From the IMG/VR virus record IMGVR_UViG_3300034155_000027, positions 67,455 through 131,454 of that record: a stretch of 64,000 nt of DNA; one strand, written 5' to 3'. Source of the DNA: a virus (lineage: Duplodnaviria > Caudoviricetes). The notes under the pieces were generated by a model. The model was not told the origin of the DNA and made no database searches. It was given only the letters and a program-made list of their open reading frames with translations. Both the position numbers and the translations under genes were made by a program. Positions 17,065 through 51,057 of this stretch are shown here, one piece after another (position 1 is the first letter of the stretch; each line of letters begins with the position of its first letter).

Positions 17065-18285
17065 TTACCATTCTGGGAAAATAGAATCTACAGAAGGTGG
17101 AGTAATATTATTTGGTTTATTTTCAGGAGAAGCAACATAAGCTTCTGGTTTATTTTTTTCTATTGGTTTAGAAGTAATACTTGTTTCAATAGCTGGTTTT
17201 ATAGTTGAACTTTCTTGAATAGTTGGTTCGGATTGTTTTGCCAAATCAATAGATTCATTCATAGTTTTGATATCTTCTTTAATTGCGGCATAGAGACCAC
17301 CAAATCTACCAACCATATAATCTTTACCATAAAGATGATCTATTAAAGTTTCTTCAGGGGCATTATGAACATAATCAAACATATCAGTAATTTTAGCCCA
17401 CCAATCACTTTTAACATCAGTTGATGTAGATTTGGCTATTTTAATTTTATTAACCCAAGTAGGAATTGCATCATAAATTTTATTTAATTGTTCAATATAT
17501 TGACCAATTTTAGTATTGATCATTTGTAATCTTTCAGATTCTGCTTTTTGTTGTTCTAAAGAAAGAGTTTCGTCAACTGATCTTGTTTTGGTTAATTCGT
17601 TTTTTAAAGAATATATTTGTCTAGCAGCATTCATAAGATTATTAACATCTTTACGAATACCTGAAGCATAAGGTTTTGAAGAAAGAACTTCTAAATCTTC
17701 AAGAACCAATTTTGAGTTTGCAAAAACATTTTGAACGGAGGTTGCTCCAAAATAAGACCATGCCCAAGTTCCTGCTACAGCAACGGCTGCAACAAGAGCA
17801 GCAATAGCTACTGGGCCCATGGCTTCTTTATGAATTGTGGGGTTTATTTTATCTAATCTTTCAGCACAAGAATCTGCTAAAATCATTAATTCTGTTTCAT
17901 TTTTATTATCTAATGCAAAAGCTGATTTTACTAAAGAATTCATTAATTCATTTTTAGCAACAACATATCTTCTTTGTGATATATTTCCATTTGGTGTTTT
18001 AGTAGCAATATATGTCATAATATCATGACGTTGATTTATATTTTCTAAAATACCATTCATAGCATCATAAGCCGGTACAATAACAACAGTATCTGGATGA
18101 GCCGTATCAATAATATCTTTTTTGGTAAAAATATTATCAGGTTCAATTCCATATAAATATCTTATCGCATCTTCTGATAAACCACTGCGACTTGGTTTTT
18201 TATCTTTTTTTTCATCTTCTTCAGATAAAGAAATAAGACCTTGTTCAACCGCTATCTTTTCAAAATTATCCCAAATATCCTGCAT
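17065..18285 (-). CDS. Probable internal head/ejection protein with a central hydrophobic helix
   Basis: AIAALVAAVAVAGTWAWSYFG follows IHKEA. Start moved to MQDIW. Confidence 0.5.
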   Translation of the reverse strand: MQDIWDNFEKIAVEQGLISLSEEDEKKDKKPSRSGLSEDAIRYLYGIEPDNIFTKKDIIDTAHPDTVVIVPAYDAMNGILENINQRHDIMTYIATKTPNGNISQRRYVVAKNELMNSLVKSAFALDNKNETELMILADSCAERLDKINPTIHKEAMGPVAIAALVAAVAVAGTWAWSYFGATSVQNVFANSKLVLEDLEVLSSKPYASGIRKDVNNLMNAARQIYSLKNELTKTRSVDETLSLEQQKAESERLQMINTKIGQYIEQLNKIYDAIPTWVNKIKIAKSTSTDVKSDWWAKITDMFDYVHNAPEETLIDHLYGKDYMVGRFGGLYAAIKEDIKTMNESIDLAKQSEPTIQESSTIKPAIETSITSKPIEKNKPEAYVASPENKPNNITPPSVDSIFPEW

Positions 18286-18286
18286 G

Positions 18287-19354: not shown

Positions 19355-19377
19355 ATTATTTCCTGGTGATAGGGATA

Positions 19378-21006: not shown

Positions 21007-21007
21007 A

Positions 21008-22744
21008 TTATAAACCTTTAGGAAATTGTTCATTAGCCATATTTATTGCAGAATTTGAAAAACTAATTACATCATCAATATTACTGAAATTATTTGCATT
21101 TAACCATGTATCAAATAAAGATTTTGGTTTCCCAACCATTCCTTTAATTCCAATTCCATTTAATGATTTTATTAATTTATCAATATTATTTTTATTTTCA
21201 CGAGACGAATTTACTTTATCACCATCTCTTAAATCTTGATAGTTTTTTATAGTATCTTCCCAAGATTTAGAGGCTTGTTTTAGTGCTTTTAATATTGATT
21301 CAGTATTAACCATTGGAACTTTAACTTTATCAGCTATTATTTGTTGTACTTGATTCAATGTTGAATAAAATTCATTTTGCCAATTTTTTAATTCAGAATA
21401 TGTTTCAGGAGCACCAAGCCCAATTCCTATTGATAATAATGATTTGTTTTGCAATGTTATTGTATCATATGTATTTTTTATTTTTTGTATTACCCCAAAC
21501 ATAATATCTTTATTGATTTTTCCATTGTCATCTACTGCATCATCTGGAATTTTAATAACAAATTTACTAATACCTGATATTGTAATTAAACCTGTAGTTA
21601 TTAAATTATTAATAGCTACCATACCACCAATTACACTTTGCATTATATACCAAAAAGCGGTTCTATATTTTTGTGCAAGCAAAATATCATATGATTGACC
21701 ACTCTTAGGTGGCCATGTAAAACTAACATCACCATTATTTGATACATTTGCAATTAAAAATGAATTAGGATTTATTATAATTTTTTGATTTGTTCTTACA
21801 CTTTGAACTTCATTTGTTTTATCTACACCATTAACCAAAACTTTATAAACACCAGTTACTTGGTTTTTATCTACTCCAAGCAAATCTGATAATTTGTAAA
21901 TATTTGGTAAATTAGCAAATTTTCCATTTGTAATATATTGATGAAAAGACTGTCCTGTTTGATCATTAATATCTATTCCCAAACTTGTAATTTGCTCAAA
22001 TAAATTAAGCGCTTTACTAGGATCTGCTCCACCAAGTGATATCCATAACTCAACCCATTTCTTACTTTGTGGACCAACTAATTTTGCAAATGAAATTTGG
22101 GCTTTGTCAGCCACTGTGGATAAATCAGGAAATTTTGCTAAGTGTTCTTTTACAGGTTGGAAATCAATAATAAGATCGTTTTTTATCTGAGCAGGATAAG
22201 TATTTTCAGTTTCTTCATCGGAAATTTGACCCATTTTTATCCAGGAAGCAAATTCCGATATTGATGCTTCCTTAGGTAATTTTCCCGTTGGTTGTTTCCT
22301 TACTACTGCTAAAATTTTATCAGCCGCATCTTGTATAGTTTCAATTTCCCCCAAGTCTCCCATTCCATCAACCGGATTTTGTTCTAATCCTTTATGTGCA
22401 AAATCAAAAAAATCTTTATTTGTTTCCACTGTTACATTGTATAATTCACACTCTGCTGTTTTATACATCATAAGGTTTTTTTCAAGATCATCTGCTAATG
22501 TAACAAATCCTTTTCTTCGTATAGCATATGCTAATTTTGATACGTCTTGCACAAAATCATTTGTTGATACTGTATCAATTTCATCATTTATTGTTTTGTT
22601 TTGAGAAATTTGTTGTGCAGCAAGTTTAATTGTTTCTGATTCAGTTGGTTTAAAGAACCCTTTCTTTACAGCTCTTCGCTCCAGCTCACGATAAACTTCA
22701 GATGCATATAAATTATTTGTTGGTTTTGTAATTGGAGTTGTCAT
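21008..22744 (-). CDS. Hypothetical virion-associated protein
   Basis: 578-aa ORF; GAGGA RBS; K-x-A motifs. Confidence 0.7.
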   Translation of the reverse strand: MTTPITKPTNNLYASEVYRELERRAVKKGFFKPTESETIKLAAQQISQNKTINDEIDTVSTNDFVQDVSKLAYAIRRKGFVTLADDLEKNLMMYKTAECELYNVTVETNKDFFDFAHKGLEQNPVDGMGDLGEIETIQDAADKILAVVRKQPTGKLPKEASISEFASWIKMGQISDEETENTYPAQIKNDLIIDFQPVKEHLAKFPDLSTVADKAQISFAKLVGPQSKKWVELWISLGGADPSKALNLFEQITSLGIDINDQTGQSFHQYITNGKFANLPNIYKLSDLLGVDKNQVTGVYKVLVNGVDKTNEVQSVRTNQKIIINPNSFLIANVSNNGDVSFTWPPKSGQSYDILLAQKYRTAFWYIMQSVIGGMVAINNLITTGLITISGISKFVIKIPDDAVDDNGKINKDIMFGVIQKIKNTYDTITLQNKSLLSIGIGLGAPETYSELKNWQNEFYSTLNQVQQIIADKVKVPMVNTESILKALKQASKSWEDTIKNYQDLRDGDKVNSSRENKNNIDKLIKSLNGIGIKGMVGKPKSLFDTWLNANNFSNIDDVISFSNSAINMANEQFPKGL

Positions 22745-22747
22745 AAT

Positions 22748-24456: not shown

Positions 24457-24684
24457 CTAATTTATCTTTCCGCCTGCTACGGAAATCATTACTCTTGTCA
24501 CGTCTTTTGCCCTAGCAATTAAACCAGCTTTTTCAAATTTCTTTGCAGCTTCATTTAATTCTTCCATTGCCGCTAAAATAAGCTTTTCTTGCTGAGTGCT
24601 TTCTTGTATTTCTGCTGTATCAGTTGCTTTTTGCATTCCTTCAAACAAATCTTTTTCGCATGAACCCTGTTTAAATAAACTCAT
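24457..24684 (-). CDS. Small hypothetical protein
   Basis: GGAG RBS, ATGA coupling; carries the helix-Gly-helix module. Confidence 0.7.
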   Translation of the reverse strand: MSLFKQGSCEKDLFEGMQKATDTAEIQESTQQEKLILAAMEELNEAAKKFEKAGLIARAKDVTRVMISVAGGKIN

Positions 24685-25190
24685 AAATTCTCCAAAATTT
24701 CGTTAGCCATATTTGATAAATCTAATGAATTTATAGATTTTTGAAGGATTTCTTCTCTTTCTCTAAAAGATCCAATTGAAAGAAGTTCTGGTCCAATTCC
24801 TATTCCAATATTTCTTTTAATAGAGCTTTCTAATATTTTTGGATCTAAACTGGCTTGTAAAAGAACAGAACCATCACCCTCTCCATAAATAGCACTCGAA
24901 TATTGATAATTAATATCTATAGAGCCCGTATTTTTATCTACAATTGGTTTACTTAACGAAATATCAATTAATTCATCACCAGACGTAGCTCTTTTAATAA
25001 TATTATTTACTTTACATGCTTCAGCTACTAAATCTATTTCACAAAAATCAGATAATAAACTTGCGTTTTCTAAAAGATTTTTAGCTTTTTTTAGATGCAA
25101 TACAGCTTCGTTTGTTACCAAAGAAGGTTTTAATTTATTTCCAAGTAGAAAAGCCATATTGTTTTCTAGTTGTGTTGCGAATTTATCCAT
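24681..25190 (-). CDS. Hypothetical protein
   Basis: 169-aa ORF overlapping its neighbours. Confidence 0.7.
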   Translation of the reverse strand: MDKFATQLENNMAFLLGNKLKPSLVTNEAVLHLKKAKNLLENASLLSDFCEIDLVAEACKVNNIIKRATSGDELIDISLSKPIVDKNTGSIDINYQYSSAIYGEGDGSVLLQASLDPKILESSIKRNIGIGIGPELLSIGSFREREEILQKSINSLDLSNMANEILENL

Positions 25191-25655: not shown

Positions 25656-26815
25656 CTTGCTTTTTTAGTTTTTTTATCTTCTCCAACTTCAATACTTGGA
25701 TATTCTTTTTTAACAGCCTTTGTTACTGCGCTTTGAAGTTCTTTCAAACTACCAGAATACCACGGAGGTGCTTTATCGTATTTCTTAACCTGCGCTAATG
25801 TTTTCTTAGCCTTTTCAATTGTATCAATCGGAAAATGATCCTTATCATCATTTACTTTCGGGTTTTTATTATCAAAAATTGCTTTTGATTTATTGCTAAC
25901 TTTGGCTTTAGTATTTTTTTCAGCCGCTAAGATAATGCTTAGTTTTTGTGATAGTTTTTGAAGAGAACTTACTTGTTTATTAGCCGCTTTATTTTTTACA
26001 GATGGTTTTTCATCATCAGAACGAATTAAAGATGTAAAAGTAAATTCTTTAGGATTTTCTTCACGTTCAAAATCCCTAGGGCTTAATTCTTCCAATTCTT
26101 CTTCTAAATGTTCAGAATCAATTTCTTCTAATTCATCCATTATATCGCGAAGATCTTCATCAAAATCATCTGCTGCCCCTGTATCAGGGGCACTAGCTTT
26201 TGGGTTTTGATTATTTCCCATTAAATTAGAAAAATCAAAAGGCCCATTGGCTGGTTTGTTTGTTACTGTTAACGGAGGCATAACTACAGTATTATCATTT
26301 CCAGAAATGGTTTCTGCTGGCATTTCTACATCATCAGCTTCACATTCATCATCTGTTTTTGGTTTATCATCAGCTTCACCACAATCTTCACACTCTTCTT
26401 CTGCAGCTGCTTTTATTAAAGAATCTAAAGACATAATTGCTAATGCAGAAGCCTTGCTAAACCCATGACTATCTAATACTTCAGAAATCTTGGATAAACC
26501 CATTACACAAGCATAATAATTAGCTTTAGCTTTCTTGTCTTTTTCAGCTTTGGCTTTTGCTTTATTGGCTTTTAGTTTTGCTTTTTCTTTAGCCGCTTGT
26601 TCTTTTTCTTTGGTCTTTAAAAGAGCTTGTTTTTCTTTTTCGGCTTTAAGTTTAGCCTTTTCTTTTTCAGCCGCTTCTTTTGCTTTGGCTTTCTCTTTAT
26701 CAGCTTGTGCTTTTTCTTTATCAGTTTTAGCTGCAGCTGTTTTGAAAAATACCGATTGGTATTTTGGATCAGACATAATATTGTTCATCGAACCTGCGAT
26801 ATCGTACTTAGACAT
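25643..26815 (-). CDS. Probable head protein with a Lys/Ala-rich helix, acidic linker and C-terminal HFPIDT..AK..LA domain
   Basis: GAGGA RBS before MSKYD; AKAKEAAEKEKAKLKAEKEK low-complexity tract. Confidence 0.7.
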   Translation of the reverse strand: MSKYDIAGSMNNIMSDPKYQSVFFKTAAAKTDKEKAQADKEKAKAKEAAEKEKAKLKAEKEKQALLKTKEKEQAAKEKAKLKANKAKAKAEKDKKAKANYYACVMGLSKISEVLDSHGFSKASALAIMSLDSLIKAAAEEECEDCGEADDKPKTDDECEADDVEMPAETISGNDNTVVMPPLTVTNKPANGPFDFSNLMGNNQNPKASAPDTGAADDFDEDLRDIMDELEEIDSEHLEEELEELSPRDFEREENPKEFTFTSLIRSDDEKPSVKNKAANKQVSSLQKLSQKLSIILAAEKNTKAKVSNKSKAIFDNKNPKVNDDKDHFPIDTIEKAKKTLAQVKKYDKAPPWYSGSLKELQSAVTKAVKKEYPSIEVGEDKKTKKASFLV

Positions 26816-26911: not shown

Positions 26912-29900
26912 TTAGAGTTTTTTACCCTGGAAATAACTGTCAAAACATCCTTGTAAATCCATCTCAGTACTCTGAGTTGGAGGTGCCATAGGAAGATATA
27001 CTTGTCCAGCATCCATTAATCCAACAACAGGAACAGATGCTTGCTTTTTCATTGCTTGTTTTGATAAAAGACTCTTGACGCTATTAAATCCAGCATCATT
27101 ATATTTCAAAATCTCATCAACCTGATAATCAACCTGGCTTTGTGCAATCATGCCACATGTTACCATTTGATTAGCCATTTCATATGCTCTCTTAACTTTA
27201 CCCTTATACGCACTGTCTTCTTCAGCTTTCTTGGCCGAAGCGTGTTCTTGGGTTAGTTTATTAGCATAATCTTTGGCTTCTGAGTCTTTTGACGCACCCC
27301 AAAGAGCTTTCCAATATTTAACAGCTTCAGCATCAACACCATGAGAAACTAATTGATCAACATCTGCTCCAGCTAATTTACCTTCCGCAACCAAAGTCTG
27401 AATCTGTTCAGCTTGTTTACGAACTTTAGGAGGCATATTAGCTAAGTCTAACATGGCTTTTTCTAAATCTTTCTGCACATGGAACGCAGCACCAGGAACA
27501 GTTGGTTTAATATCTAAATTACCAGCATCAACAGCACTTGCACTTCCCTTAGGGTGCGCTTGCTGTGAAAGATCATTAAATCCAAGAAGTCCCTTTTGAG
27601 CTAGTTTAATTCTTGCTTCTGCACGATTTTGTTTAGAAGCCAAACTAATTGATCCGCCTTCTAATTCAACCGGGATAGGATCTCCACCCTTAGCAGGTGT
27701 ATATTTTGCATCCATAGCGTCTCCTGTATCTTTTAGTAATTCTTCAAGATCTAATCCCATATCATCAACCTCTTCATTTGAAATTTCACCATCTTCATTT
27801 TCTTTATTAAAGTCTAATTCTTTACTAACCGTAATGGTTTTTTCATCTTCGTTAACATTGATAATTTCTTTATCGGTCATAGGATTATATTCTTCTCCAC
27901 TTTCTGTTTTAATATCCCAACCATCATCTAATGCTTCAGATGTAAGTTCAATTGGACCACCAATAGAATCTTCGGTAATAATACCAAGTTCTAATGCCGT
28001 TTGTAATGGAGAACTTCCAAATTCATCATTTCCAAGACCTAAACCTTCAACATCATAAGCAGGAGCAATTTCTTGCGCTCTCTTTTGAAGTTCGGCTGTT
28101 CCCTGTGCATATTTAACAACAGCTTCCATTAGTTTACTAGTATCACCTAACATAGCTTTTGCGTCTTTAACAGCTTCAACAGTAAGATTGTTTAAATAAT
28201 TACGTTGTTTACCATTCATAGAAGCATAACTTTCTTTGTAAACTTTACGTGCCGTTTTAATTTCACGAATATGATTTGCAAGAGAAGTAATTGTTTCTGA
28301 AATTCCTTCCTGTAACATCCCGTTTACTCTCTTTCTCATAGACTGTAATTGAGAAGCTGTTTTAGGAGCAGCGGTTGGAGCGAATGCATCATCACCAGCT
28401 GTAGGAACTGCATCTAATCCTTCTGCATCTTCAGCAACAGGGCCACTGACTGAATCTTTTAATTCAGTAAGTTTAGCACCCATTTCGTTCTCTAAATCTT
28501 GAAGATCTTCAACAATGGCTTCTGGATCCCCACCCTCATCTCCAACAACTTCCGGAGGAACTAAATCATCTTCCATTGCCGGAGCTGGAGGAGGAGCTAC
28601 TGGAGCAGGCGGAGGAGGCGCTGCTTGTGCAGTGGTTTGTAATAGAGAAGAAGCTGTAGCCTTGAACCCTTCAGTTTGAATACGGCTTAAAAGAGATTTT
28701 CCAAAACGTTCTGTTGCTACGGCATCATAAAGTGAGTCTGAATTGCCTTTAGTAATTTGATTTACTGTAGCTGCTAAAATCTGACGGTCTCCAGCAAGCA
28801 CAACCCAACGAGAAGCAGACTTGTCAATTCGACCATCTGGAGTTGCGATTTTCTCAAAACGAGCTTTTAAGGAGGCACGAGAAAGTTTTTCTTTAGTAGC
28901 TAAATCATCACCATATAAACCATCTACTTTACCAACACCTGGGAAAGGAGATTTACCAACCATTTGCTTATCAAGCATACGATCTTTTTCATTTAAAGGA
29001 TCGGGAGTATAAGTTGGGCCTTTTTCTTTTGGTTCAGTAGTTCCTTGGAAATATCCACGACTTTGAAGTTGTTCTTTAGCCTTTTTTAAAGCTGATTCAC
29101 GGAACATAGCTCGTTCATTTTCATCAGCTAAGCGTTGAAGTTCTTTTTTAACTTGTTCATCACCTGGATACATCCCTTCAATATCACCAACGCCCGGGAA
29201 AGGAGTTGGGCCAACAAGGGTTTTGTCCATTTGGCGGGCTTTATCATTTAGTGGATCAACAGGATATTTCTTTTGTCCTGGTGTAGGTTCTTCTGTACCT
29301 TGAAAATATGCATTCTTTTTACTCATTGTTGGTTCCTCGTTCTTCTTAGTAAGTCTAAACAAATTCTCCTGTAGGCTTGCTATTTTGACTTGTGCTCCCA
29401 AAATTGCTCTCTGTAAATCTGAGGCATAAGTTGGAAACGCCTCAGGAGCATTCATCTGAATTGAAGAAGAATTATCTAAATCCTCCTCTATCAGGTCATG
29501 AGAGCAAGTTGGACCAACCGCATCACTCTCATCTTCTTTCATTCCATCGACAAGACCATCAATCTTATCGGTCAACTTCGTTAAATCATCCTTTATAGAT
29601 TCCAGATCTTGCGTAGAAATTTCTTTAGACGCTTCCTTTATCTGTAAATAATTTTCTAATAAAGCTGCTGCTACTGAAACATCACTAGCAATAATGTGTT
29701 TCACTTTGGCTTTTTTATCTGCCCCATTAACTACTAAAGATAATTCCATAGGAGACAACCCCATGTTAATTTCTCCATAGCAGCTTTTTAATTTCATATG
29801 TTGGCAAAAATCTTTTTCTGTTCTAGCAACTGTATGACATTCTGAACAAATTGCTCTATTCACAGCTACACCCATTGATACATCTTTAGATACACCAGAA

Positions 29901-31516
29901 GTAACTTTATCAGCTAAATCAGGATAATTTTTTTTATCTAAAGCACATAAAGCAATAATACGCTCTCTTTTTTCATCATAAACAGTATCAACAATTACCC
30001 CTCTAATTTTATCTACTGATTGTGATTGATGATCTAAGCATAAAGGCTTTCCAACCCAGTCTTTATAAGCCTCTTTAAGTTCAGATTTTGGAAAAATATC
30101 ACAATTATGTACAATCAAACCATTTGCTACATAAGAATGATCATCTTCTACTTCTATATTATACACACTTCCATTATACGGAAGATAATTCTTAGATAAA
30201 ATCGTATGAATTCTATAATTATCAATAAATCTAAAAAGTTTTACAAATTTAACATTACCAATAAAACTATTTAATTTATTTGAGTTTTTAGTAAAAACAA
30301 AACCTTCATTATATGGTATTTTTATTCTATATACAATATGTTTCCCAACAATAAACCTTCCTGATTTTAACAGAGATTTAGATGGTTTTTGTGTATAAAA
30401 AGTATTGTTTATATGTAAACTATTTAATATTACACGGATTTGATTAGCTAAATCTTTTGAAACTGTAGTTCCAATAATTTTACCAGAATATTTATCAATT
30501 CCTCCATCTCCTTCTAACCACCCGGTAATAAAAGCTGTTTTTATATTTGAAGAACCATAAACAATTGCACTAGATAATTTTTTACCATGACTATATAAAC
30601 CAACATGTTTTTCAAAGAAATTTGCAATTTCTTTATTTGAAAAAGATACTGTTGCTTTTTGATTGCAAACTTTTATTTTTGGTTTTATATTAAATTCTTT
30701 TTCAATTAATTCACATGTATCTTTGGCTAATGTATTTTCCTCATGATATCCAAATGAAAAAACAACAGAATTATTATTAAAAGATCCTTCTGCGGAAAAC
30801 AATCCTAAAAGACGAGCCTTGTTTTCATTAATTTCAGAATCATTAAAAATATTATTTAATACTGGAGCTAATAATAACGATCCTTTATTTAAATCATTTG
30901 CTTTAATAAAGTCGCAATCAAACATATTAGACTTTAATGATCTTGCTATATTTGTATCAATTGATTTTCTATTAATCGCAAAAAAAGGATGATCTAAAGT
31001 ACAAGATATAGGTAAACTATTTGCAATTTTAAAATTAACCAAATCACCAGTATATTGATTTATAAATGTTTTTGTAACTTTTTTAATTCTATTTTTATGT
31101 GTAATAACCTCATCACCAATAATAATGTCTTCAATGTTTTTAACAGACCCATCAGACATTAAAATTTGTGTTCCAGCAATAAAACAATTGCTATTTTTAT
31201 ATGGTTTAATAGATTTATCAGAACAAACCCATTTAATACTTTCTTTACCTACTTTTTCCCACACAGCGGTAACTGGCTCACCATTAGCCATTAGTTTTGG
31301 AGAACCATCTTCATTTAATAAGGCAGCTTCTGCTGCATGCATCATAATAGCTGTAAAATAAAGAAAGTCTTTAGCTTGTGGAGCGATAACTTTTAGTTCT
31401 TGTGCAAATTTAAACATTCGTTTTTCGATATCTAAATCTGCATCTGAGGCTAATTTTTCTAATGGATGAAAATCTTCTGGTTTTATAGCGACTGCCTCTC
31501 CTAATTTAATCAGCAT
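26912..31516 (-). CDS. Prohead maturation protease/scaffold fusion containing an intein
   Basis: The spliced extein reads KNSN|CDIFPKSEL..AYKDWVGKPLCLDH...RGVIVD...DVSMG...ELSLV..GAD, a phage prohead serine-protease-like pattern. Long acidic/coiled-coil C-terminal part; located between portal and capsid. Confidence 0.8.
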   Translation of the reverse strand: MLIKLGEAVAIKPEDFHPLEKLASDADLDIEKRMFKFAQELKVIAPQAKDFLYFTAIMMHAAEAALLNEDGSPKLMANGEPVTAVWEKVGKESIKWVCSDKSIKPYKNSNCFIAGTQILMSDGSVKNIEDIIIGDEVITHKNRIKKVTKTFINQYTGDLVNFKIANSLPISCTLDHPFFAINRKSIDTNIARSLKSNMFDCDFIKANDLNKGSLLLAPVLNNIFNDSEINENKARLLGLFSAEGSFNNNSVVFSFGYHEENTLAKDTCELIEKEFNIKPKIKVCNQKATVSFSNKEIANFFEKHVGLYSHGKKLSSAIVYGSSNIKTAFITGWLEGDGGIDKYSGKIIGTTVSKDLANQIRVILNSLHINNTFYTQKPSKSLLKSGRFIVGKHIVYRIKIPYNEGFVFTKNSNKLNSFIGNVKFVKLFRFIDNYRIHTILSKNYLPYNGSVYNIEVEDDHSYVANGLIVHNCDIFPKSELKEAYKDWVGKPLCLDHQSQSVDKIRGVIVDTVYDEKRERIIALCALDKKNYPDLADKVTSGVSKDVSMGVAVNRAICSECHTVARTEKDFCQHMKLKSCYGEINMGLSPMELSLVVNGADKKAKVKHIIASDVSVAAALLENYLQIKEASKEISTQDLESIKDDLTKLTDKIDGLVDGMKEDESDAVGPTCSHDLIEEDLDNSSSIQMNAPEAFPTYASDLQRAILGAQVKIASLQENLFRLTKKNEEPTMSKKNAYFQGTEEPTPGQKKYPVDPLNDKARQMDKTLVGPTPFPGVGDIEGMYPGDEQVKKELQRLADENERAMFRESALKKAKEQLQSRGYFQGTTEPKEKGPTYTPDPLNEKDRMLDKQMVGKSPFPGVGKVDGLYGDDLATKEKLSRASLKARFEKIATPDGRIDKSASRWVVLAGDRQILAATVNQITKGNSDSLYDAVATERFGKSLLSRIQTEGFKATASSLLQTTAQAAPPPPAPVAPPPAPAMEDDLVPPEVVGDEGGDPEAIVEDLQDLENEMGAKLTELKDSVSGPVAEDAEGLDAVPTAGDDAFAPTAAPKTASQLQSMRKRVNGMLQEGISETITSLANHIREIKTARKVYKESYASMNGKQRNYLNNLTVEAVKDAKAMLGDTSKLMEAVVKYAQGTAELQKRAQEIAPAYDVEGLGLGNDEFGSSPLQTALELGIITEDSIGGPIELTSEALDDGWDIKTESGEEYNPMTDKEIINVNEDEKTITVSKELDFNKENEDGEISNEEVDDMGLDLEELLKDTGDAMDAKYTPAKGGDPIPVELEGGSISLASKQNRAEARIKLAQKGLLGFNDLSQQAHPKGSASAVDAGNLDIKPTVPGAAFHVQKDLEKAMLDLANMPPKVRKQAEQIQTLVAEGKLAGADVDQLVSHGVDAEAVKYWKALWGASKDSEAKDYANKLTQEHASAKKAEEDSAYKGKVKRAYEMANQMVTCGMIAQSQVDYQVDEILKYNDAGFNSVKSLLSKQAMKKQASVPVVGLMDAGQVYLPMAPPTQSTEMDLQGCFDSYFQGKKL
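30104..31186 (-). mobile_element. 361-aa intein with LAGLIDADG endonuclease
   Basis: Starts CFIAGTQILMSDG; block B CTLDHPF; LLGLFSAEG and FITGWLEGDG; ends VYNIEVEDDHSYVANGLIVHN followed by Cys+1. Confidence 0.95.
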
Positions 31517-32371: not shown

Positions 32372-32677
32372 TTATTCATCGCTTTTAAAATTAATAGCTT
32401 TTATCGCAGCCATTAAAGCAATAGAATCAGGTTCATCTAAATCTTCGTATAAAGAACGATCAAAAACTTCTTTAAATGTTTTTTGGAATTTTTTACGACG
32501 ATCATCTTTACCTTTTCGTAATTTCCTCATTATATAACTATAACTTAAATCTATTTGAGGATTTTCCGAATCTGTAACTGCTGCATATGCACAAATAGCT
32601 TTTTTTGTTAACTCAGAATCTCCAAGTAACCTTAAATCTTTACAAATACCGGATAGTTCTTGTTGTAAATTTAACAT
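32372..32677 (-). CDS. Hypothetical protein
   Basis: 101-aa ORF, AGGA RBS. Confidence 0.7.
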   Translation of the reverse strand: MLNLQQELSGICKDLRLLGDSELTKKAICAYAAVTDSENPQIDLSYSYIMRKLRKGKDDRRKKFQKTFKEVFDRSLYEDLDEPDSIALMAAIKAINFKSDE

Positions 32678-33762
32678 TTAATTCCTAAATTTGAAAATGT
32701 TTTTACCAAAGAATTAGATTTATTTTTAGCCTCTTTTGGTATTTCAATATTTTTCTTTCTGTTTTCCATTAATCTAGAATACGTTTCATTACTTAAACCC
32801 ACATACCTAATTAAATAGACTGAAAGTTTTTTGGTAGGATTAACTGAGGCTCCAAGATCATGAAACAATATTTTATTTACATCAATCCAAATTTCAGCTT
32901 TACCAGCTGGTAGTAAAACAGGGCCGGCATTAACTTCAATTTCCATTTCGTTAGCACGTCTATGAGTAACTGAAGAAGATATATTTGGAAAATTTGTTTG
33001 TACTAAAATACTATTTTCTAATATTGATTTTTTTAAATTTTCTAAAAATTGTTCATAACCCATATTTAATATTGTTTCTACAGCTTCAGGTTCAATTACT
33101 TTAGATAATTGCTCAACTAATATTTTCCTGGTCATTTGATAAACATTAGAAGAAATAACAATATCATTTGGAGAATAATTAGAAAACCAAGAAAATTGAG
33201 TTATTGGTTGATTAATTCTTTTACCAATAGGTATCTCTTTAAACTGTGCCGGTAACATATTTAATAATTGTTCTACAACATCTTTATTTTTCTTATATCC
33301 TTTTGTAGTCCATCTTATATTGTCTTTTGCTATTTCTTGACCAGTTTCATCCACATAAGTAGTAGGAATAACAGCATCAGCTGCTCTCATTTTAGTACTT
33401 AATGTACTCATATCTTTAGTAACTTGAGCAATAGTACCTGGAACCTGTGATACTAATCTGGCAACTTCATCAGGATCTTGAGATTTAAAAGCTGTATCTA
33501 GTTTTTGTAATTCTTGAATAAGATTTGATAATGGCCCTTTCATATCATCATAAGCTTGTTCTACTTGATCTTTTTTATCAGCAAACTCAGGATTAAATCT
33601 GGCTTTCCACCAGTTTTTTACACGCTGTACAACCCCGGCAATACAAACCAAATCATTAGAATTTAATTGAATATCAAACGCCGCTTGACGAAGAATATGA
33701 ATATCTTGTTTTATTTGTTTTTCGGAAAATGTTTTTACCAAAGAATTAGATTTATCTAACAT
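32671..33762 (-). CDS. Hypothetical head-module protein bounded by an in-frame 31-bp direct repeat
   Basis: KSNSLVKTFS occurs at both termini. Confidence 0.75.
   Translation of the reverse strand: MLDKSNSLVKTFSEKQIKQDIHILRQAAFDIQLNSNDLVCIAGVVQRVKNWWKARFNPEFADKKDQVEQAYDDMKGPLSNLIQELQKLDTAFKSQDPDEVARLVSQVPGTIAQVTKDMSTLSTKMRAADAVIPTTYVDETGQEIAKDNIRWTTKGYKKNKDVVEQLLNMLPAQFKEIPIGKRINQPITQFSWFSNYSPNDIVISSNVYQMTRKILVEQLSKVIEPEAVETILNMGYEQFLENLKKSILENSILVQTNFPNISSSVTHRRANEMEIEVNAGPVLLPAGKAEIWIDVNKILFHDLGASVNPTKKLSVYLIRYVGLSNETYSRLMENRKKNIEIPKEAKNKSNSLVKTFSNLGIKC
32693..33755. repeat. 31-bp perfect direct repeat pair (32693-32723 and 33725-33755)
   Basis: GAAAATGTTTTTACCAAAGAATTAGATTTAT; the 25-bp core also occurs at 32351 and 50294. 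Confidence 0.92.
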
Positions 33763-33764
33763 TT

Positions 33765-34859
33765 TTATTTTCCAATAATATTTTGTGCCGCATTTAAAAA
33801 CTTAATACTGTTTTCCTCATCGCCAAATTTATCACAGATTTCTGATGCTTTAACTAATAAAACTGAAGCAATTCCTAAATTTCCAATTTCTTGTTCTTTT
33901 GCTGATTTTACTAATAATTTCATTATCTCAATTGCAGCTACTGTTTTTTCCGTTCCCTCTGGTGTTACTTCTAACGCAACCTCTGAAACAGGTTGATTTA
34001 TAACAGGTGGAATATTTTGTTGTGGTAAAATATTTGAAGGAGTTTCTATAACTGGTTGTGTTGGGTTAATTCCTGCAAAACTTGCCTGATATAAAGCCGA
34101 CATCTGTTTCTTAATATCAATAAATCTTTCTTGGTAATCTTTTGCTATTTTTATATAATTACCAAAATCATTTCTGTTTTCATCTAATTTTCTAAAAAAA
34201 TCTTTAATAGATTTATATGTAGTCTCAGCTAATCTCATAGCTTCTCTAGCTGATTCTTTTTGTTTACCTATTGTATTTTTAAACATACGTTCAAGAATAT
34301 TTCCTTTCATTTGATCTATTGAAGGAATATTTTCTTGAATCCATTGGCCTACACCCGCTTCCGTAATTAACTCAGGAGCAGCTATAGTATAAAGCAATTT
34401 TTTACCAGGAATTGCAGATGCTTTTATTGGCATTGTTACTTTACTACGCAACGGATTAGTTGGTGTTTCTCCAAGTGCTTTATGCATTTCTTCGATTTGA
34501 GATGGAGTTAACCCAGTATTTGAATTAAATTCTTTAATAATTTTATCTCTAAGAATTTCTAATTTAGGAATATCAGAAAAAATATTATCCATAATAGAAA
34601 GTAATTGCCAAGCATAATACATTACTTTTGGATATTCTCTATTTTTAAAAGCCATACGAGCTTGATGTATAGCCTCTCTAAGATCAGGATCTGATCCCTT
34701 GGCTATGTCTCTCATATTATTATCAATCCATGTAATTTCATCATACATCGATTGATAATCTTCAAATGCTAAATATCTAAAGACATTCATTGGATTTAAA
34801 TGTCTTTTTACAATATTTTTTATAGATTTTCTCTGAGCTTCTTTTTCAAGATAAACCAT
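33765..34859 (-). CDS. Hypothetical head-module protein
   Basis: GGAG RBS before MVYLEKEAQ. Confidence 0.75.
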   Translation of the reverse strand: MVYLEKEAQRKSIKNIVKRHLNPMNVFRYLAFEDYQSMYDEITWIDNNMRDIAKGSDPDLREAIHQARMAFKNREYPKVMYYAWQLLSIMDNIFSDIPKLEILRDKIIKEFNSNTGLTPSQIEEMHKALGETPTNPLRSKVTMPIKASAIPGKKLLYTIAAPELITEAGVGQWIQENIPSIDQMKGNILERMFKNTIGKQKESAREAMRLAETTYKSIKDFFRKLDENRNDFGNYIKIAKDYQERFIDIKKQMSALYQASFAGINPTQPVIETPSNILPQQNIPPVINQPVSEVALEVTPEGTEKTVAAIEIMKLLVKSAKEQEIGNLGIASVLLVKASEICDKFGDEENSIKFLNAAQNIIGK

Positions 34860-36779: not shown

Positions 36780-36941
36780 TATACTCTCATTCAAACTATA
36801 TATCACTTAATCAAATAAGAAAAATTGTTCTACAACTTTATTATCTACTAATATATATCTTAATATTATCTTTTTTCTGGTTTCTAAATCATGTACAGTT
36901 TTTTACCAAAGAAATATATTTTTACTTACCACAATAGATTA

Positions 36942-38798
36942 TTACATGGGAAAATATCCCAAAATTGCTTGAGCAGATCTTTTTTTAGTGGCAAGATCAT
37001 ATTTCATATTTGAAGGATTATTAATTTTAAATCCTTGAGTTACATCAAACTTCCAAGCTAGATAAGCATTTAATAATGCCATCAATCCATCGTTTGCCAT
37101 ACTTCCTTTAACATACTTTTTTATTGGTTCCCCAGATTTGTCTTTGGTAATTTTAATATCCATACTGGCACAATGTTCAATTAACCATTCTATTTTATCA
37201 TAGCTTTTACTAGGAAATTTTATTCTTCCTTCTTTTAATAAACCTAATACTTCTGAAATATAATAATCTTTTTCAAAAACTATTTCTTTAGGCCATATAT
37301 CATCTGCATATTTAACATGGTTATTTACTCTATGTGAACCTCTAGATGCTAAAAATTTCTCACCATGTATTCTTTGTAAATCATGGGTTAAATCATATGC
37401 GTCTCCAATATCTCCAACTGCCAATGACATATTATAACGACGAAACATTTCTTCTACTGTTTGTATTTTAAATTCACGATCATTACTATTTAATCTTGTC
37501 GCAAATTCTACATTAAATAAAGAACCCTCTACTGTTAAAATTACAACACAGCTGTAAGATTTTCCAGAACCACGACCAGCAATTTGTTCCAGGGCAGATC
37601 TTTGACCCCAGTCGAAACCAGCATAAACTCTTCTATTTTCATTTGGATGAATATATTTAACCATCTTTTTTGCTTCTAAACATTTGGTTTTTATTTCCAA
37701 ACTAGTAATTGTACCACCTTCACCATCAAAAAATTCTCCAAGAACTTCATTCATATAAATACGTTCTGTATTAATTGGATTATTTTCTGGTTTAGCTTTA
37801 TCAATAGTTTCTCTGGTAAAGTTTGGAATATATAATTGATTTATATGATATCCAACAAATGGACAATCATCTGCATCACCACCTGTAATAGGAATCCACT
37901 TTCCACGTTCTTGAGCTTCTAATTTATTTTGTTCATGACCACACTCAGTACACCTAACAGTTAAACCATAAATCCAAACATCTTCCCATCTAATATCTGG
38001 TCTGTATAAAGGAAAATATTTTCCACATTTTTCACAACGAAGATGATAATAATTTTGGGTGGATTTTTGCCACATATTCCAATAATATCCACCTTTAGTT
38101 TTAGGAGTTCCAAAATATACTTGTACCCCAGCACCAATCATACCATAATGAGATTTTGTTAATGTTTGCGTAGCTGTACCAATAGCTACTTCTGTCATAT
38201 CCTGACATTCATCAAAAAAACATAATTCTATACTTCTACCACGAACCCTATCTCCATTTAAACCAGTTGAATCTATCCAAACCTGGTTTCCATTTAGGAA
38301 TTTTTTAAAATGCATACTGTTATTGGCAGGACTACCAATATCATAAAGGTTTTCCATAAATGATTTTGGAAGACCATTTGATTTCATTGTTCCAGGAATA
38401 GACCTAGAAGATCCAATCATAGGATCAAATTTATCTTTAGTATAAGCTGCAGCTAATGCCAAAGTAGGAAAAAGGTGCATCATTTTCATTGGTGGTCTAT
38501 TATTTTTGCCATATATTCCACATCCGGCAAAATAACATTCCATAGCACCAGCCATAATAGTGGCACCTACTTGTCTACCCTTTACTAAAACAATAGGTCT
38601 AGCATCTGGTGAAATTGCTTTTAATCCAATATATCTATAAATATCTGCGAATGGTTTATAACCAGAACCAGCGCCTAATGTTAATGCAGAACCGTCTACA
38701 TTTAGGTTTTTTTCACAGAAATAAATAGGATCTACATTTAATATACCGTCTTTAAATTGTTCAAATAATGTAGAAAAATTAGATTCAACAGCTTTCAT
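36942..38798 (-). CDS. terL: Terminase large subunit (GpA-like, with Zn-binding motif)
   Basis: KGRQVGAT (Walker A), RGRS..LCFFDE (Walker B), FGTP, CEKC/CTEC, GYHINQL, NEVLG, AGFDWG nuclease motif. Confidence 0.92.
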   Translation of the reverse strand: MKAVESNFSTLFEQFKDGILNVDPIYFCEKNLNVDGSALTLGAGSGYKPFADIYRYIGLKAISPDARPIVLVKGRQVGATIMAGAMECYFAGCGIYGKNNRPPMKMMHLFPTLALAAAYTKDKFDPMIGSSRSIPGTMKSNGLPKSFMENLYDIGSPANNSMHFKKFLNGNQVWIDSTGLNGDRVRGRSIELCFFDECQDMTEVAIGTATQTLTKSHYGMIGAGVQVYFGTPKTKGGYYWNMWQKSTQNYYHLRCEKCGKYFPLYRPDIRWEDVWIYGLTVRCTECGHEQNKLEAQERGKWIPITGGDADDCPFVGYHINQLYIPNFTRETIDKAKPENNPINTERIYMNEVLGEFFDGEGGTITSLEIKTKCLEAKKMVKYIHPNENRRVYAGFDWGQRSALEQIAGRGSGKSYSCVVILTVEGSLFNVEFATRLNSNDREFKIQTVEEMFRRYNMSLAVGDIGDAYDLTHDLQRIHGEKFLASRGSHRVNNHVKYADDIWPKEIVFEKDYYISEVLGLLKEGRIKFPSKSYDKIEWLIEHCASMDIKITKDKSGEPIKKYVKGSMANDGLMALLNAYLAWKFDVTQGFKINNPSNMKYDLATKKRSAQAILGYFPM

Positions 38799-38882
38799 TT
38801 TTAAATACTCTTTCAAAAATATGCAAGAATATTGAATGATTTAGCCGTTTTACAAGTTTTAATTATTAAACAAGCTTAAAAA

Positions 38883-43678: not shown

Positions 43679-44407
43679 TTACTTATTTTCAATAATAATA
43701 TTTGGAATAGCAATTACATTCCATAAATTCATTTCATTTAATAAACTTACCGTTTTACTAAAATCAGCTCTAGCTGCCGCTGCTAGTTTTCTTCTTGAAA
43801 ACCCCTTCGTTACTTCTTTTGCAATTTTTTCATGATGATTATTTACCCAGTTTATAATCGCTGGTTCTACTGTAAATCCTAGTTTAGCTGCTAAATATAT
43901 AACTCTAACAACTCTTTTAGTATCATCTCTTAATGTTATCCTTGGCGGTAATGGTGTTCTTAATATTTTCTTTTTAATATCTTCTAACGCTAAACCTGTA
44001 GGATCTAATAATTTCCGTAAATTCATTGGAATAATTAATGTATTACAGGTAAAATCCCTACTAAATAATTCTCTTTGCATTGGTGTAGGGTTAGATACTC
44101 CAGCTTTATTTAAAAAATATAATACATCAGGAGAATTAAAATTAGATGAAAAATCATATTTTATATTATCAATCATTAATTGATAATGACCATCAGGAAA
44201 TTTTACCGGTGTTGTTTTAAATGTATTAGATGTTAATTCTGCTAATTTATTAACAGATTCATCCCCAGTAGTTAAATCTATATCTTGTACTTTATAAGAA
44301 CGATTTAGTATTTTATCTCTTGGAAGACCGCCTACAATATATGGGTCAGATAATCCATTATCTTTAGCAAGTCTTTTTATTTCTAATAATACATTAACTA
44401 CCGACAT
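43679..44407 (-). CDS. CCA-adding / poly(A) polymerase family nucleotidyltransferase
   Basis: YIVGGLPRD, DIDL, SRDFTCN, LDPTG...D, DDTKRVVR (class II NTase motifs A-E). Confidence 0.88.
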   Translation of the reverse strand: MSVVNVLLEIKRLAKDNGLSDPYIVGGLPRDKILNRSYKVQDIDLTTGDESVNKLAELTSNTFKTTPVKFPDGHYQLMIDNIKYDFSSNFNSPDVLYFLNKAGVSNPTPMQRELFSRDFTCNTLIIPMNLRKLLDPTGLALEDIKKKILRTPLPPRITLRDDTKRVVRVIYLAAKLGFTVEPAIINWVNNHHEKIAKEVTKGFSRRKLAAAARADFSKTVSLLNEMNLWNVIAIPNIIIENK

Positions 44408-44412
44408 TTAAA

Positions 44413-46287
44413 TTACCTTGTGTTTATTTTTGGAGATTTTTCAATTCTTGCAGGTTCTCTTAATGCTGCTGTTTCTTCTACCGGAATTTGTATCGGTACC
44501 TCTGCACCAGGAGATTTAGATGTTGGCTTTCCTTCAGCCTGATCATCTTCTTTTTGTTTTCTTAAATCTTTTCTCTTTTGCTCTTTTTCCTTTTGAGCTT
44601 CTAATCTCTTTCTAATCTCAGATGTTTGAGGATTTTCTTTTTTATTTACTTCTACCCACTCAGATGCCCCAGGCGTATCTACAGATCCTCTTACTTGTGT
44701 TAATATATCTCCTAAACGGCTTCCAATATATTGGTTTGATTCTAATGCCTTAGACATTGCTTCCCCTAATGCCGGGAAGAATGATGCTAAACCAAGTCTA
44801 TCCATCATTATATCTAAAATACCTAATTGTCTCGCTATTTCTCTTTGATTATATACCGAAACTAACATTTCTAATCGATTAATTACATCATCAATTGTAA
44901 CGTTTGATAATGCCGCTTCAATTATATCATCAGTTGAATCATTTGGAATTTCTTCTTTATCTTCTGGTTCAGGTACAAATACGTTTTTTACTTTATTAGG
45001 CACTATTTTTTCAGGAACTTGAGCCACAGGTTTAGGCGGTAATTGTGCTGTTTTTAATATCCAGCTTCCTTTACCTAAAGTAATTTCTGCTTTTTTTCTT
45101 TCTTCAGGAGTATCCATAGGATCACCAGATACGCCCCTAGATAAATTATCAAAAAAATCTTTTAATAAATTATGAGTTGCTTCACTATCACCTTTACCCT
45201 CATCAGTTCCAGGCGTTTCTTCTGGTGTTGCTCCTGGAGCTGCATCTGCTGAAGGCATACCTGCAAAATCATCTAATGGAGATGGTGGTAACTGTGCGAT
45301 TTTATAAAAGAAACCAGCCTGTTTAGTTTTGCCACATGATTGTAAATAATTTGCAGTAAGGAAAATTTGATCTTCAAACAATGAAGATTTTACAGTTCTT
45401 TTATTTGCTACTTGTATTCGTCTTTTTAAATCATGTAATAATTTAATCATTAATTCTTGCTCATCACCAGCAAATAATTGGCCATCCATATTTGATAGTA
45501 ATTTTTCTGCAGAATTTAATCTTCCAATTAATTTATTGCGTTGTTTCTCAATGGTGTCTCTAACATCATTAATATCATGTGGAAGATGTTGTGGTAATCC
45601 AGGAGAGACTTTTGTAACATGTCCCTCGCCACTAGGAATGGGATTTGGAATTTTCCCAGAAGAAGGTAGAGAAGTACGTAAAGCACTTATTGGAAGACTT
45701 CCGAAAAACCCAGCATCAGCAGTTGCTAATTTTGGATATTTATCAGGTACTTTTTCATTATAAAATTTTAACCAATTATTATAGTCCATTTGTTCACTTG
45801 GTTCCCAGTTGCCAAGAACAGTTTGTTTAGCCTGGTCTTGTTGATATCCTTTATTCATTAATTCATATATTTTACGTGTGGCTGACACCCATCTCCCAAT
45901 ATCATATTGCGGAAGTTGAATTGGCCAATTTGATTGAGGATATGCTAATTTAGGTATAAGAGTTTCTGGTATCATCTTCTTTAATGCGAGATCAATAGCT
46001 TCTATTAATTGTAAAAATGTTCCAATAGGATTTATATCTCTATTTCTAAATATTTCCCTTGATAATATTTGTGCAGTTTGATTGTTTATTTTTTTATCCC
46101 ACATGGATAATATTATTTGTGGTACTAAATTTCTTACCAAGAAAAATTTTCTTTGATCTTCTTCATTTTTTATATCAAGATCAGACATGTTTTCAAAATC
46201 AGATAATATATCTTTTTTAATATTTTCTGGCAATAATTCACAATTATTTGAATCAAATTGCTTTTGGAAATATGTATTAAATTTCAT
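44413..46287 (-). CDS. Large hypothetical head-module protein
   Basis: Several K-x-A motifs (PKLAY, PKLAT, YKIAQ, LKTAQ). Start moved to MKFN. Confidence 0.75.
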   Translation of the reverse strand: MKFNTYFQKQFDSNNCELLPENIKKDILSDFENMSDLDIKNEEDQRKFFLVRNLVPQIILSMWDKKINNQTAQILSREIFRNRDINPIGTFLQLIEAIDLALKKMIPETLIPKLAYPQSNWPIQLPQYDIGRWVSATRKIYELMNKGYQQDQAKQTVLGNWEPSEQMDYNNWLKFYNEKVPDKYPKLATADAGFFGSLPISALRTSLPSSGKIPNPIPSGEGHVTKVSPGLPQHLPHDINDVRDTIEKQRNKLIGRLNSAEKLLSNMDGQLFAGDEQELMIKLLHDLKRRIQVANKRTVKSSLFEDQIFLTANYLQSCGKTKQAGFFYKIAQLPPSPLDDFAGMPSADAAPGATPEETPGTDEGKGDSEATHNLLKDFFDNLSRGVSGDPMDTPEERKKAEITLGKGSWILKTAQLPPKPVAQVPEKIVPNKVKNVFVPEPEDKEEIPNDSTDDIIEAALSNVTIDDVINRLEMLVSVYNQREIARQLGILDIMMDRLGLASFFPALGEAMSKALESNQYIGSRLGDILTQVRGSVDTPGASEWVEVNKKENPQTSEIRKRLEAQKEKEQKRKDLRKQKEDDQAEGKPTSKSPGAEVPIQIPVEETAALREPARIEKSPKINTR

Positions 46288-47080: not shown

Positions 47081-47100
47081 AATTCCTTACTTTCTGTTTT

Positions 47101-47153: not shown

Positions 47154-47154
47154 A

Positions 47155-50100: not shown

Positions 50101-51057
50101 AAGAGAAACAGGAGCTTCAGTATCTTTTTCATACCATCTAGCTTCATCAGCTGAGTTTACATCGCCTAGAATATATCCAATTTCTGTAGTTGATAAACCA
50201 TCTGCTCCAGCTAAATCAATTGCTTTTTCTATAAAATTAGGAGCTAAATCTCTAACGTCTTTTAGCGCTTTTTCAATAACATTTTTATTAGCGGTTTTTA
50301 CCAAAGAATTAGATTTATTATCTGCGCTTCTGTTTAAAATAGAATCTCTTGTTTCAAATAAAGAAGTATTGCGATTTTGAAGATCTCCCAATTGTCTTGT
50401 TTGATTTTCTACACATCCTCCAGGAACTTGATTTCCTTTTTGTGTTGTATACCCGTTTTTAAAATCATAAACTATACCAGTCATAATATCTTGATATACC
50501 CCATCGGATATTCTGGTCATCTGCCCACCTGGACGATCCGGTGGATATCTAGTTTGTAATGGTGCTTCTAACGGAGCATATCTCTTAACCTGTTGCTCTA
50601 CCGCTTTAGCTTGCTGTTTTGCATTATTCATATCAGAATGAACTTTTCTAGGTTCATCATATGCTTCTTCTCTACGAGCTCTGCTTTTTTCCTCTCTTAA
50701 TTTAGTAATCTCATCTTCGGTTGCTCTTTTTGCTTGAGCTACTGCATTTTTAGGTGCAGCAATAGATAATAGTAATTCATCTAATACAGACGCTTGCCTC
50801 TGTAATAAAGGGTTTTTGCTTTTATCAAATGATTCCGCTACAGCTGCAATTTCATCTAATTGTTGTGGAGTAATATCAAATGAAGCTCTAGAATCCAGAT
50901 CATCAGCCACTCCATCTAATAAAGTTGAAGCTGCAGCAATTGCCATTGCTACTTTTTCAAATATTTCAGGACCTTTAGAAGAAGCATCTACAAGAAGAGC
51001 ATCACTACTATTCTCTATTTTTTTTGCTAATACTCTCAAATCTGTTGAAATTACCAT
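47155..51057 (-). CDS. 1300-aa hypothetical protein, probable internal virion protein
   Basis: GGAG RBS; internal duplicated helical unit (DLAPNFIEKAIDLAGADGLS / EIAPHLLKSAVEKAKEDGIT); K-x-A motifs. Confidence 0.75.
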   Translation of the reverse strand: MVISTDLRVLAKKIENSSDALLVDASSKGPEIFEKVAMAIAAASTLLDGVADDLDSRASFDITPQQLDEIAAVAESFDKSKNPLLQRQASVLDELLLSIAAPKNAVAQAKRATEDEITKLREEKSRARREEAYDEPRKVHSDMNNAKQQAKAVEQQVKRYAPLEAPLQTRYPPDRPGGQMTRISDGVYQDIMTGIVYDFKNGYTTQKGNQVPGGCVENQTRQLGDLQNRNTSLFETRDSILNRSADNKSNSLVKTANKNVIEKALKDVRDLAPNFIEKAIDLAGADGLSTTEIGYILGDVNSADEARWYEKDTEAPVSLSQSDYNTIPNTTNLSVNDGESRVLTEPENRVEYNKARVLLRSLKEATWFSLLADVIDALEGSGLSAHYLELLEREFLDSEPEQKSQERISIDVNRAKPHSDTVLSASEKINLVSLAINIIQEIAPHLLKSAVEKAKEDGITDEQIKLILSKENISKIEKLSFDESGEVKIAESLFPHLKSLGWNSLISDHIKVMAELGVSNRAITKLATGFLPQGNSSFSRLQNLLSLAGVHEFELEDGPRIDLETPEVKPIEINMDVPEGEFEGNLALQPAIKEQNVTVPDFNFEEEDEPVESSGSVTPEADLEEWWKTYQQVLQDVKSDEVLRNKWIAMQKAGQKQEAIDNYIATMNEKMNQVGFIGPGEKNANGKNWLDVAKDLKAKTSSPITVVTPTPESQLRLNDKPPTIPGRLGPAIKSTEREETAKAKSEIGLNWDKYTEETGVNLTPDKIKKLEESIRKGFEKAKESADVKFNRYKYDGRPMPTSVGKLPREILEKVTSMFEADETSEAVSKYLQEFIPQWLAPKMEDEIAGYRNKLEVEKNDKLAKADAAERDGKPIPAQRFRNEALSIEKRMNNDIVVAKEALSLKMSEILPPVKDLHLARETVIGPQNLADAKKLRRDYLNSLSRQTINNILVENALPPMYRNVDIMLATDFDEQLQGLAKMTPGSKGKSGFIHSYPEKLIPVWKDPEGYVNAFTLAKEMYGERTPKGGVSTKDPSIRKQIDEDMESQGYVKPYQKLFGSQGSTANMLYGVEGGNPLADFGGLKTLFSDPQEYVRKYVEGTQLFRTKTVDTPLEWKQIHGGELDARTRTDSGDTIRRMIKGMAIKGMDPKEIEAEINKKFPKAFIPAGTIEKMVPIFTEHGEIKGENVAKFNDWMRKDGFYPAYEPAIGEKTFANILTGTGYIPKHAPDLVGGYSLEELKSHNYQLDKPQRGKAPSPKPSSKLPDGTPIPTQYQERLRSAVPGSPIYHALMSKIKRDAKK

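Follow-up and report, generated by a model that had tools for sequence, protein, structure and literature searches.

In herpesviruses, the scaffold is freed from its capsid-binding C-terminus by assemblin, a relative of the T4-type prohead proteases that cuts after alanine. In the giant phages SPN3US (gp47, gp53 and gp54), phiKZ and 201phi2-1, the prohead protease takes off N-terminal regions of about 70-250 amino acids (aa), cutting at a short motif, and such propeptides are found on several internal head proteins, paralogues included, where a targeting or scaffolding role is suspected but unproven (PMC5694885, PMC10052503). In phage P22 (bioRxiv 10.1101/2022.12.13.520362; PMC9962691), the C-terminal helix-turn-helix of the scaffolding protein is indispensable for coat binding and, once fused, carries cargo into procapsids. 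Here we describe a helix-glycine-helix hairpin that ends at a conserved alanine motif and is present in six families of proteins encoded in the head-assembly block of a viral DNA stretch of 64,000 nucleotides, hereafter the window.

The window is the final 64 kb of a 131-kb IMG/VR record (IMGVR_UViG_3300034155_000027, positions 67,455 to 131,454) that is estimated to be 25% complete. Its source is an uncultured huge phage, of which Bacillus phage G is the closest cultured relative. The guanine-cytosine content is about 31%, and the long open reading frames (ORFs) are all on the minus strand, where every feature located below also lies; proteins are named by a W followed by the lower coordinate of their ORF (e.g. 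W21008 for 21008-22744). A megablast search of 12 kb against a phage collection gave no matches, and a related-locus search with W21008 as the sole query retrieved nothing. The portal protein as query gave 80 related contigs from viruses, reaching 480 kb in length. Two relatives, G002 with 392 kb and G006 with 480 kb, were compared as complete genomes, together with the head regions of three others.

Hairpin and site units in six families of head-block proteins

An earlier note on this DNA had claimed a module common to nine proteins. The nine quoted peptides were all found at the named genes, the numbers given for them being ORF ends and not segment positions, and six of the segments (those of W21008, W24457, W25643, W33765, W44413 and W47155) were conserved in orthologue alignments as a hairpin followed by a site. 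In these six families the first helix has the spacing phi-x-x-phi-small-x-x-phi-[D/E/R]-x-x-G, the glycine makes a tight turn between the helices (with a three-residue insert, SGDP, in the W47155 family), and the second helix ends in phi-phi-[K/S/T]-x-Ala at 12, 16 or 18-19 residues past the glycine, so that the families differ by about whole helical turns. The phi-phi-[K/S/T]-x-A form describes the ending better than the K-x-A type proposed before. Taking the orthologues of the six families together, the turn glycine is present in 110 of 116 (95%) and the site alanine, in position P1, in 108 of 116 (93%), and both are retained down to 30-40% overall identity. The W25643 (23 sequences, spacing from glycine to alanine 19) and W33765 (six sequences, spacing 12) families keep both residues throughout. 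In W21008 (spacing 18) the glycine is found in 18 of 19 sequences, the alanine in all of them and a lysine at P3 in 18; in W44413 (spacing 12) the glycine is present in all 31, the alanine in 28 and a glutamine at P1' in 30. The counts are 19 and 21 of 23 for W47155 (spacing 19), and 13 and 11 of 14 for W24457 (spacing 16). The hairpin spans some 30-35 aa and starts between aa 38 and 332 of the carriers; its position ranges from aa 38 to the C-terminus, and in five families it is in the N-terminal part.

In W21008, a 578-aa protein, the hairpin and site are at 22454..22558 (aa 63-97), ending in AIRRKGFVTLADDLEKNLMMYKTA with E after the site, and are kept in 19 orthologues from related loci and in 60 homologues from the database. 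Identity among these 60 is 54-59% over the N-terminal 170 aa, and the C-terminal part of about 400 aa is hypervariable, with about 12% identity and six types unrelated by BLAST. W17065 (17065-18330) is a paralogue of W21008 (hhalign 95.6%, E=1e-8), and both have an N-terminal helix (xxVxRxLExxAxxKGFF-like) and an 'LY..E..D..D.AHP' domain. Compared with this paralogue, W21008 has about 55 additional aa, inserted as a discrete piece that holds the hairpin and site, and the segments on either side of it are common to both proteins. In the 1300-aa protein W47155 (47155-51057) the unit is at 50758..50859 (aa 67-100) and ends in ESFDKSKNPLLQRQASVLDELLLSIA, followed by AP; the invariant or nearly invariant residues of the family alignment concentrate at A89, S90, V91, L92, D93, E94, L96, L97, A101 and P102. 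The length of this protein varies from 1423 aa in G002 to about 237 aa in distant relatives, and in the small beta domain that they share, relatives have CPDHPG...QC where the window has YPPDRPG...QD, which suggests from the sequence a loss of possible metal ligands.

W25643 (25643-26827) is a low-complexity protein of 394 aa, rich in Lys, Glu and Ala, which looks like a core or scaffold component; its unit is located at 26405..26509 (aa 107-141) and ends in SEVLDSHGFSKASALAIMSLDSLIKAA before A. The adjacent W24457 (24457-24684) has 75 aa, with the unit at 24475..24573 (aa 38-70) ending in AAKKFEKAGLIARAKDVTRVMISVA before GGKIN. Its family comprises 14 orthologues and tandem paralogues of 71-306 aa, with the N-terminal 70 aa in common and C-terminal extensions of 0-235 aa. 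In W44413 (44413-46311; 632 aa) the unit lies at 45295..45375 (aa 313-339) and ends in ANYLQSCGKTKQAGFFYKIA, followed by QLPPSP and a Pro/Gly-rich linker. W33765 (33765-34871) is a scaffold-like protein encoded after the portal and homologous to a clade-wide post-portal protein (hhalign 98.8% against the family of G006 237334-238569). It ends in a three-helix bundle (33774..33962, aa 304-366), the last two helices of which, aa 332-366, are the hairpin. The C-terminal hairpin of the post-portal protein is kept clade-wide, its end reading ...YIxKYAKSIQGDDPETAIKLFxIVKxIKG.

The six carriers are all encoded between the major capsid protein gene (14871) and position 51057, around the genes for the portal (34905-36806), the large terminase (36942-38816) and the protease, and their order is the same in G006. 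PHROG and Pfam scans of nearly all the head-block proteins gave no annotation on any carrier, W33765 included, and a weak scaffold match (phrog_73, E=0.008) was obtained for the adjoining ORF, 32671-33762. The block also harbours, among the module-bearing genes and in the same place in G006, a tRNA nucleotidyltransferase-like gene (43679-44407).

For the other three quoted segments, identity with this module is not supported. The one in W17065 (17821..17934, aa 133-170) has Asn or Ser where the others have the turn Gly, and a variable distance to KEA/KKA, and it scored at or below zero in the leave-one-family-out test given below. For the segment of 24681-25190 (24987..25094, aa 33-68) no orthologue was detected, and its alignment with the neighbouring W24457 family, though in register, was insignificant (hhalign E=0.2). 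The segment of 32372-32677 (32597..32656, aa 8-27) occurs in four close relatives only and is not followed by phi-phi-[KST]-x-A, the distant orthologues having a different, longer N-terminus. Those orthologues (L016, L025, L044 and other loci) carry a conserved N-terminal KLPxGKYRVLSxKGKNLGTYxSxxxAxKRLxQVEYFKH that is absent from the 101-aa version of the window.

Resemblance between families and predicted fold

The resemblance between the families was assessed with leave-one-family-out profile hidden Markov models (HMMs) scored against 6119 reversed decoys and all the non-family ORFs. The families recovered in register above every null match were W24457, with scores of up to 21.9 bits, and W25643, with 12.5 bits, and W47155 (9.4-13.0 bits) and W44413 (7.6 bits) were borderline, at the edge of the null distribution. 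HMMs built on single families found mostly their own family. By hhalign, three of the 28 module pairs were below E=1e-3, namely W25643-W24457 (E=2e-5), W25643-W33765 (E=2e-4) and W21008-W44413 (E=5e-4), and most of the others were in register yet insignificant. Since control comparisons among 26 profiles of 80 aa, unrelated and taken from these phages (about 200 pairs), also yielded false matches, the use of these E-values at face value was dropped, and the three matches represent an enrichment and not a proof of homology. Only the modules of W24457 and W25643 are clearly alike in sequence, and the kinship of W25643 with W33765 and of W21008 with W44413 is suggestive. No similarity was detectable among the six families outside the hairpin.

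A combined HMM matched these families, their distant orthologues and tandem paralogues, all from the head block, and nothing rose above decoy level in about 1300 ORFs outside the block in G002 and G006. The sole extra match was in the protease protein of two relatives (L008 and L009), at GFEATANDLLKTA, followed by QAPAAPPP, and was weak (8.4-10.4 bits). A second HMM iteration brought no new family but a weak match in the protease protein. The scores against the head proteins of phage G were below zero.

Two models were calculated with AlphaFold2 and the family alignments, one for the first 240 aa of W47155 and the other for W33765. Both predict confident hairpins, with a chain break or a linker directly past the site. 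In the W47155 model (mean predicted local distance difference test score, pLDDT, of 78, and about 77-91 across the hairpin) helices are predicted at 2-28, 30-57, 64-79 and 83-100, the last two being the module; the chain breaks at 101-104, exactly between IA and AP of the site, and continues into a long helix and the small beta domain. W33765 is predicted to be all-alpha, with disordered segments at 139-176 and 271-303, the latter a Pro-rich linker, and a C-terminal bundle of helices 304-329, 332-348 and 352-366 (pLDDT 95-97 over aa 311-360). Because the hairpin is packed in bundles of three or four helices, the models do not agree with the free-standing folded module of about 25 aa that had been proposed.

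A sequence search of the PDB with the W47155 profile found no match, and Foldseek with its N-terminal model against the PDB gave nothing below E=0.49; the W33765 model matched in BFVD one uncharacterised phage protein (E=1e-3). The matches of W33765 aa 296-368 by VIA-align, with Z of 7.3-8.7, were MIT domains, Rap/TPR repeats and designed bundles. As modelled, the module is thus a hairpin in a small bundle with a TPR-like repeat packing code. On the level of sequence families true TPR repeats were rejected, since Pfam scans of five carriers (all of the six but the 75-aa W24457), with E up to 0.05-0.1, showed neither a TPR nor an MIT family, and TPR is kept here as a description of packing.

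The maturation protease and its predicted sites

The head-maturation protease protein (26912..31516; phrog_18299, E=1.4e-15 at aa 481-576) is 38% identical to phage G gp19. An intein that includes a LAGLIDADG endonuclease (Pfam matches, aa ~110-480) splits its gene, and the protein is unusually long, with 1534 aa in the window and 1242 aa in G006. It is presumed from its sequence to be the enzyme for the phi-x-K-x-A sites, of which it bears nine itself, and 14 in the G006 orthologue. A hairpin-like unit with K-x-A sites, absent from the list of the earlier note, was found in this protein at 27038..27118 (aa 1467-1493, DEILKYNDAGFNSVKSLLSKQAMKKQA followed by S), 40 residues from the C-terminus. 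It is conserved clade-wide as QVDxIMKFNDxxFESLKxVVARH..LRKxAG..PQVGL; the match in the protease of L008 and L009 falls elsewhere in the protein.

The occurrence of phi-x-K-x-A was compared with within-protein shuffles in three diverged genomes. In the head block 60 motifs were observed against 23.5 expected in G000, 67 against 23.8 in G002 and 50 against 21.6 in G006, that is, an enrichment of 2.3-2.8 times that is seen in head proteins only, the ratio elsewhere being 0.8-1.3. The HK97-type capsid protein (14871-15920; 349 aa, 51% identity to phage G gp27) carries one such motif, LVKYA (15804..15818, aa 35-39), in an N-terminal extension that gp27, aligning only from aa 58, does not have; K-Y-A-A-I-L is present in five of five capsid orthologues and the full L-V-K-Y-A in three of the five. 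A [DENQ]-x-x-G turn 11-20 residues upstream was found at 6.9% of the head sites and 1.9% of the non-head sites (odds ratio 3.8, p=0.001). A multi-omics paper on phage G contains no cleavage data.

Proposed role and comparison with known systems

The reading that we favour, tentatively and as plausible rather than probable, is that in this clade of megaphages related to phage G the hairpin serves prohead-core proteins for docking during assembly and is unhooked when the maturation protease cuts where helix 2 ends. The carriers, namely the scaffold-like post-portal protein, the core protein rich in Lys and Glu together with its small paralogues, three larger internal proteins and, probably, the protease, would each have a TPR/MIT-like helix-Gly-helix hairpin as part of a small bundle of helices. 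The bundle would tether the protein to a common partner during prohead building, which would be the capsid shell on its inner face or else the scaffold core, and the protease would then cut at phi-phi-[K/S/T]-x-Ala, on the C-terminal side of helix 2; the scaffold-like protein, with its C-terminal hairpin, would be cut at other, upstream sites. The cut would free the mature part within the head, and the anchor pieces would exit or be degraded. We infer docking, cleavage at the motif, the identity of the partner and the location in the virion from the confinement to the head block, the conserved Gly and Ala and the motif enrichment. The docking role is also favoured by the conserved N-terminus and hypervariable C-terminus of W21008, by the insertion of its hairpin and site with respect to W17065, and by the structure of W33765, which ends in the hairpin past a disordered linker as the P22 scaffolding protein ends in its helix-turn-helix. 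It is further in line with the confidently predicted hairpins, with the more frequent turn upstream of head sites, and with four precedents: the T4 capsid-targeting sequence, the phiKZ-like propeptides, the P22 helix-turn-helix and the herpesvirus scaffold tail.

Several observations weigh against docking. Phage G has no module although a homologous protease, portal and capsid protein are present in it, and 93% of the predicted sites are without an upstream hairpin, which is therefore not required for a site. Most carriers have a part that is better conserved than the module. The similarity between the families is weak: in the leave-one-family-out test W21008 was marginal (p ~0.002) and W33765 was not recovered, and about 1% of the hhalign control pairs were below 1e-3, including one false match at 1e-5 to a terminase. 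The fold matches of W33765 are generic bundles, a Z of about 8 being in the noise range for helical bundles. The clipped docking tag proposed earlier is supported in part and by its architecture alone, a hairpin ending at a conserved motif in head-block proteins only, and the hairpin-free sites and phage G speak against it. Nor is one portable tag demonstrated by families that are barely alike in sequence.

W24457, being nearly the module alone with five residues past the site, has no cargo. The presence of the hairpin at the C-terminus of W33765, and of a similar unit near that of the protease protein, indicates that it marks prohead-core components generally and not cargo specifically, contrary to the cargo-specific tag of the earlier note. 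It is unlikely that the hairpin is a transferable signal for capsid loading and release in phage-G-related megaphages, in which a folded unit of about 35 residues would bind to one site in the prohead interior, would function whether placed N-terminally, internally or C-terminally, would be unhooked by an Ala-specific (assemblin-like) head protease and would have been grafted onto a set of fast-evolving injected proteins.

The hairpin might only present the substrate, the protease reading the helix end and the hairpin exposing the scissile phi-phi-[KST]-x-A bond with no other docking. The constant location of the site at the very end of helix 2, in steps of whole turns from the glycine (12, 16 or 18-19 residues), the predicted break directly past it and the similar unit at a likely self-cleavage site of the protease protein would agree with such a function. 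However, a protease that acts on so many sites without a hairpin does not need one, and a cut past helix 2 of W33765, where the hairpin is the C-terminal end, would free almost nothing. We consider this explanation doubtful.

To a similar degree it seems improbable that the hairpins have no common function, being ordinary TPR-like hairpins of all-alpha head proteins rich in Ala, Lys and Leu, with generic antiparallel packing and a proximity to sites due to the density of phi-x-K-x-A. In our own reading the spacing of small and large residues fits the TPR consensus, and the noise-level Z of the MIT, TPR and designed-bundle matches, the failure of W33765 and marginal score of W21008 in the leave-one-family-out test and the false match among the hhalign controls would all be expected from it. 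Against this, no comparable match occurred in the ORFs outside the head block of the two genomes, the best local alignments are in register for most family pairs, the association of turn and site is stronger at head than at non-head sites, and Gly and Ala persist where overall identity has fallen to 30-40%. Descent of the carriers as diverged paralogues of one ancestral prohead-core protein, with the hairpin as its best-kept piece, has in its favour the clearly similar modules of the adjacent W24457 and W25643, the tandem paralogues of the former and the paralogy of W17065 and W21008, but is rather remote given the lack of detectable similarity outside the hairpin, the variable position of the latter from aa 38 to the C-terminus and its absence from W17065 exactly where W21008 has it, a sign that a unit was gained or lost.

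What purpose the long propeptides serve on the head proteins of giant phages is not yet settled (PMC5694885, PMC10052503), and this clade provides a compact, recognisable candidate element with a defined boundary, so that a test would need only three or four recombinant proteins. Were the hairpin a loading signal, it would mark the proteins injected by uncultured phages of 400-480 kb, such as the hypervariable W21008 family, and would offer a new handle for cargo loading in large capsids. If it were merely a generic hairpin, the head-specific phi-x-K-x-A motif would be the useful result that remains.

The propeptides of the phiKZ-like phages resemble the units of the window in preceding a short recurring motif on several head proteins, paralogues included, cleavage being predicted in the window. 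They differ in that the window belongs to a phage-G-related clade, its motif has Ala in the last position instead of the Ala/Ser/Gly-x-Glu of the phiKZ-like phages, and a recognisable folded hairpin abuts the site. Like the hairpin as proposed, the capsid-targeting sequence of T4 (IPI-III and Alt) precedes a prohead-protease site in proteins that are loaded in the prohead core, and is cut off after assembly. It is, however, a leader of 10-20 residues at the extreme N-terminus that ends in Leu/Ile-x-Glu, whereas the hairpin, of about 35 residues and in a helical bundle, is located 38-340 residues into the protein or C-terminally and ends in phi-phi-[K/S/T]-x-Ala.

W33765 is modelled, in likeness to the P22 scaffold, as an elongated all-alpha protein with a flexible linker and a terminal two-helix hairpin, and is encoded in the head-assembly block; no sequence or significant structural match to a known scaffolding protein was obtained. 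P22 has no maturation protease and its scaffold leaves intact, whereas the window encodes a protease; moreover, the hairpin of the window is part of a three-helix bundle and is also N-terminal in other proteins. In the herpesviruses, as proposed for the window, a capsid-binding helical end of the scaffold is parted from the rest by a site with Ala at P1, the M-site of assemblin. The herpesvirus element is a short single helix past the site, whereas the hairpin is mostly before it, and any homology between the two proteases would be only through the T4/assemblin superfamily. Finally, the cargo peptides of encapsulins send unrelated proteins inside an HK97-fold shell by means of a common element, as the proposed role would imply for the window. 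Those peptides are short, unstructured, usually C-terminal and uncleaved, whereas the hairpin described here is predicted to be folded and lies beside a predicted cut site.

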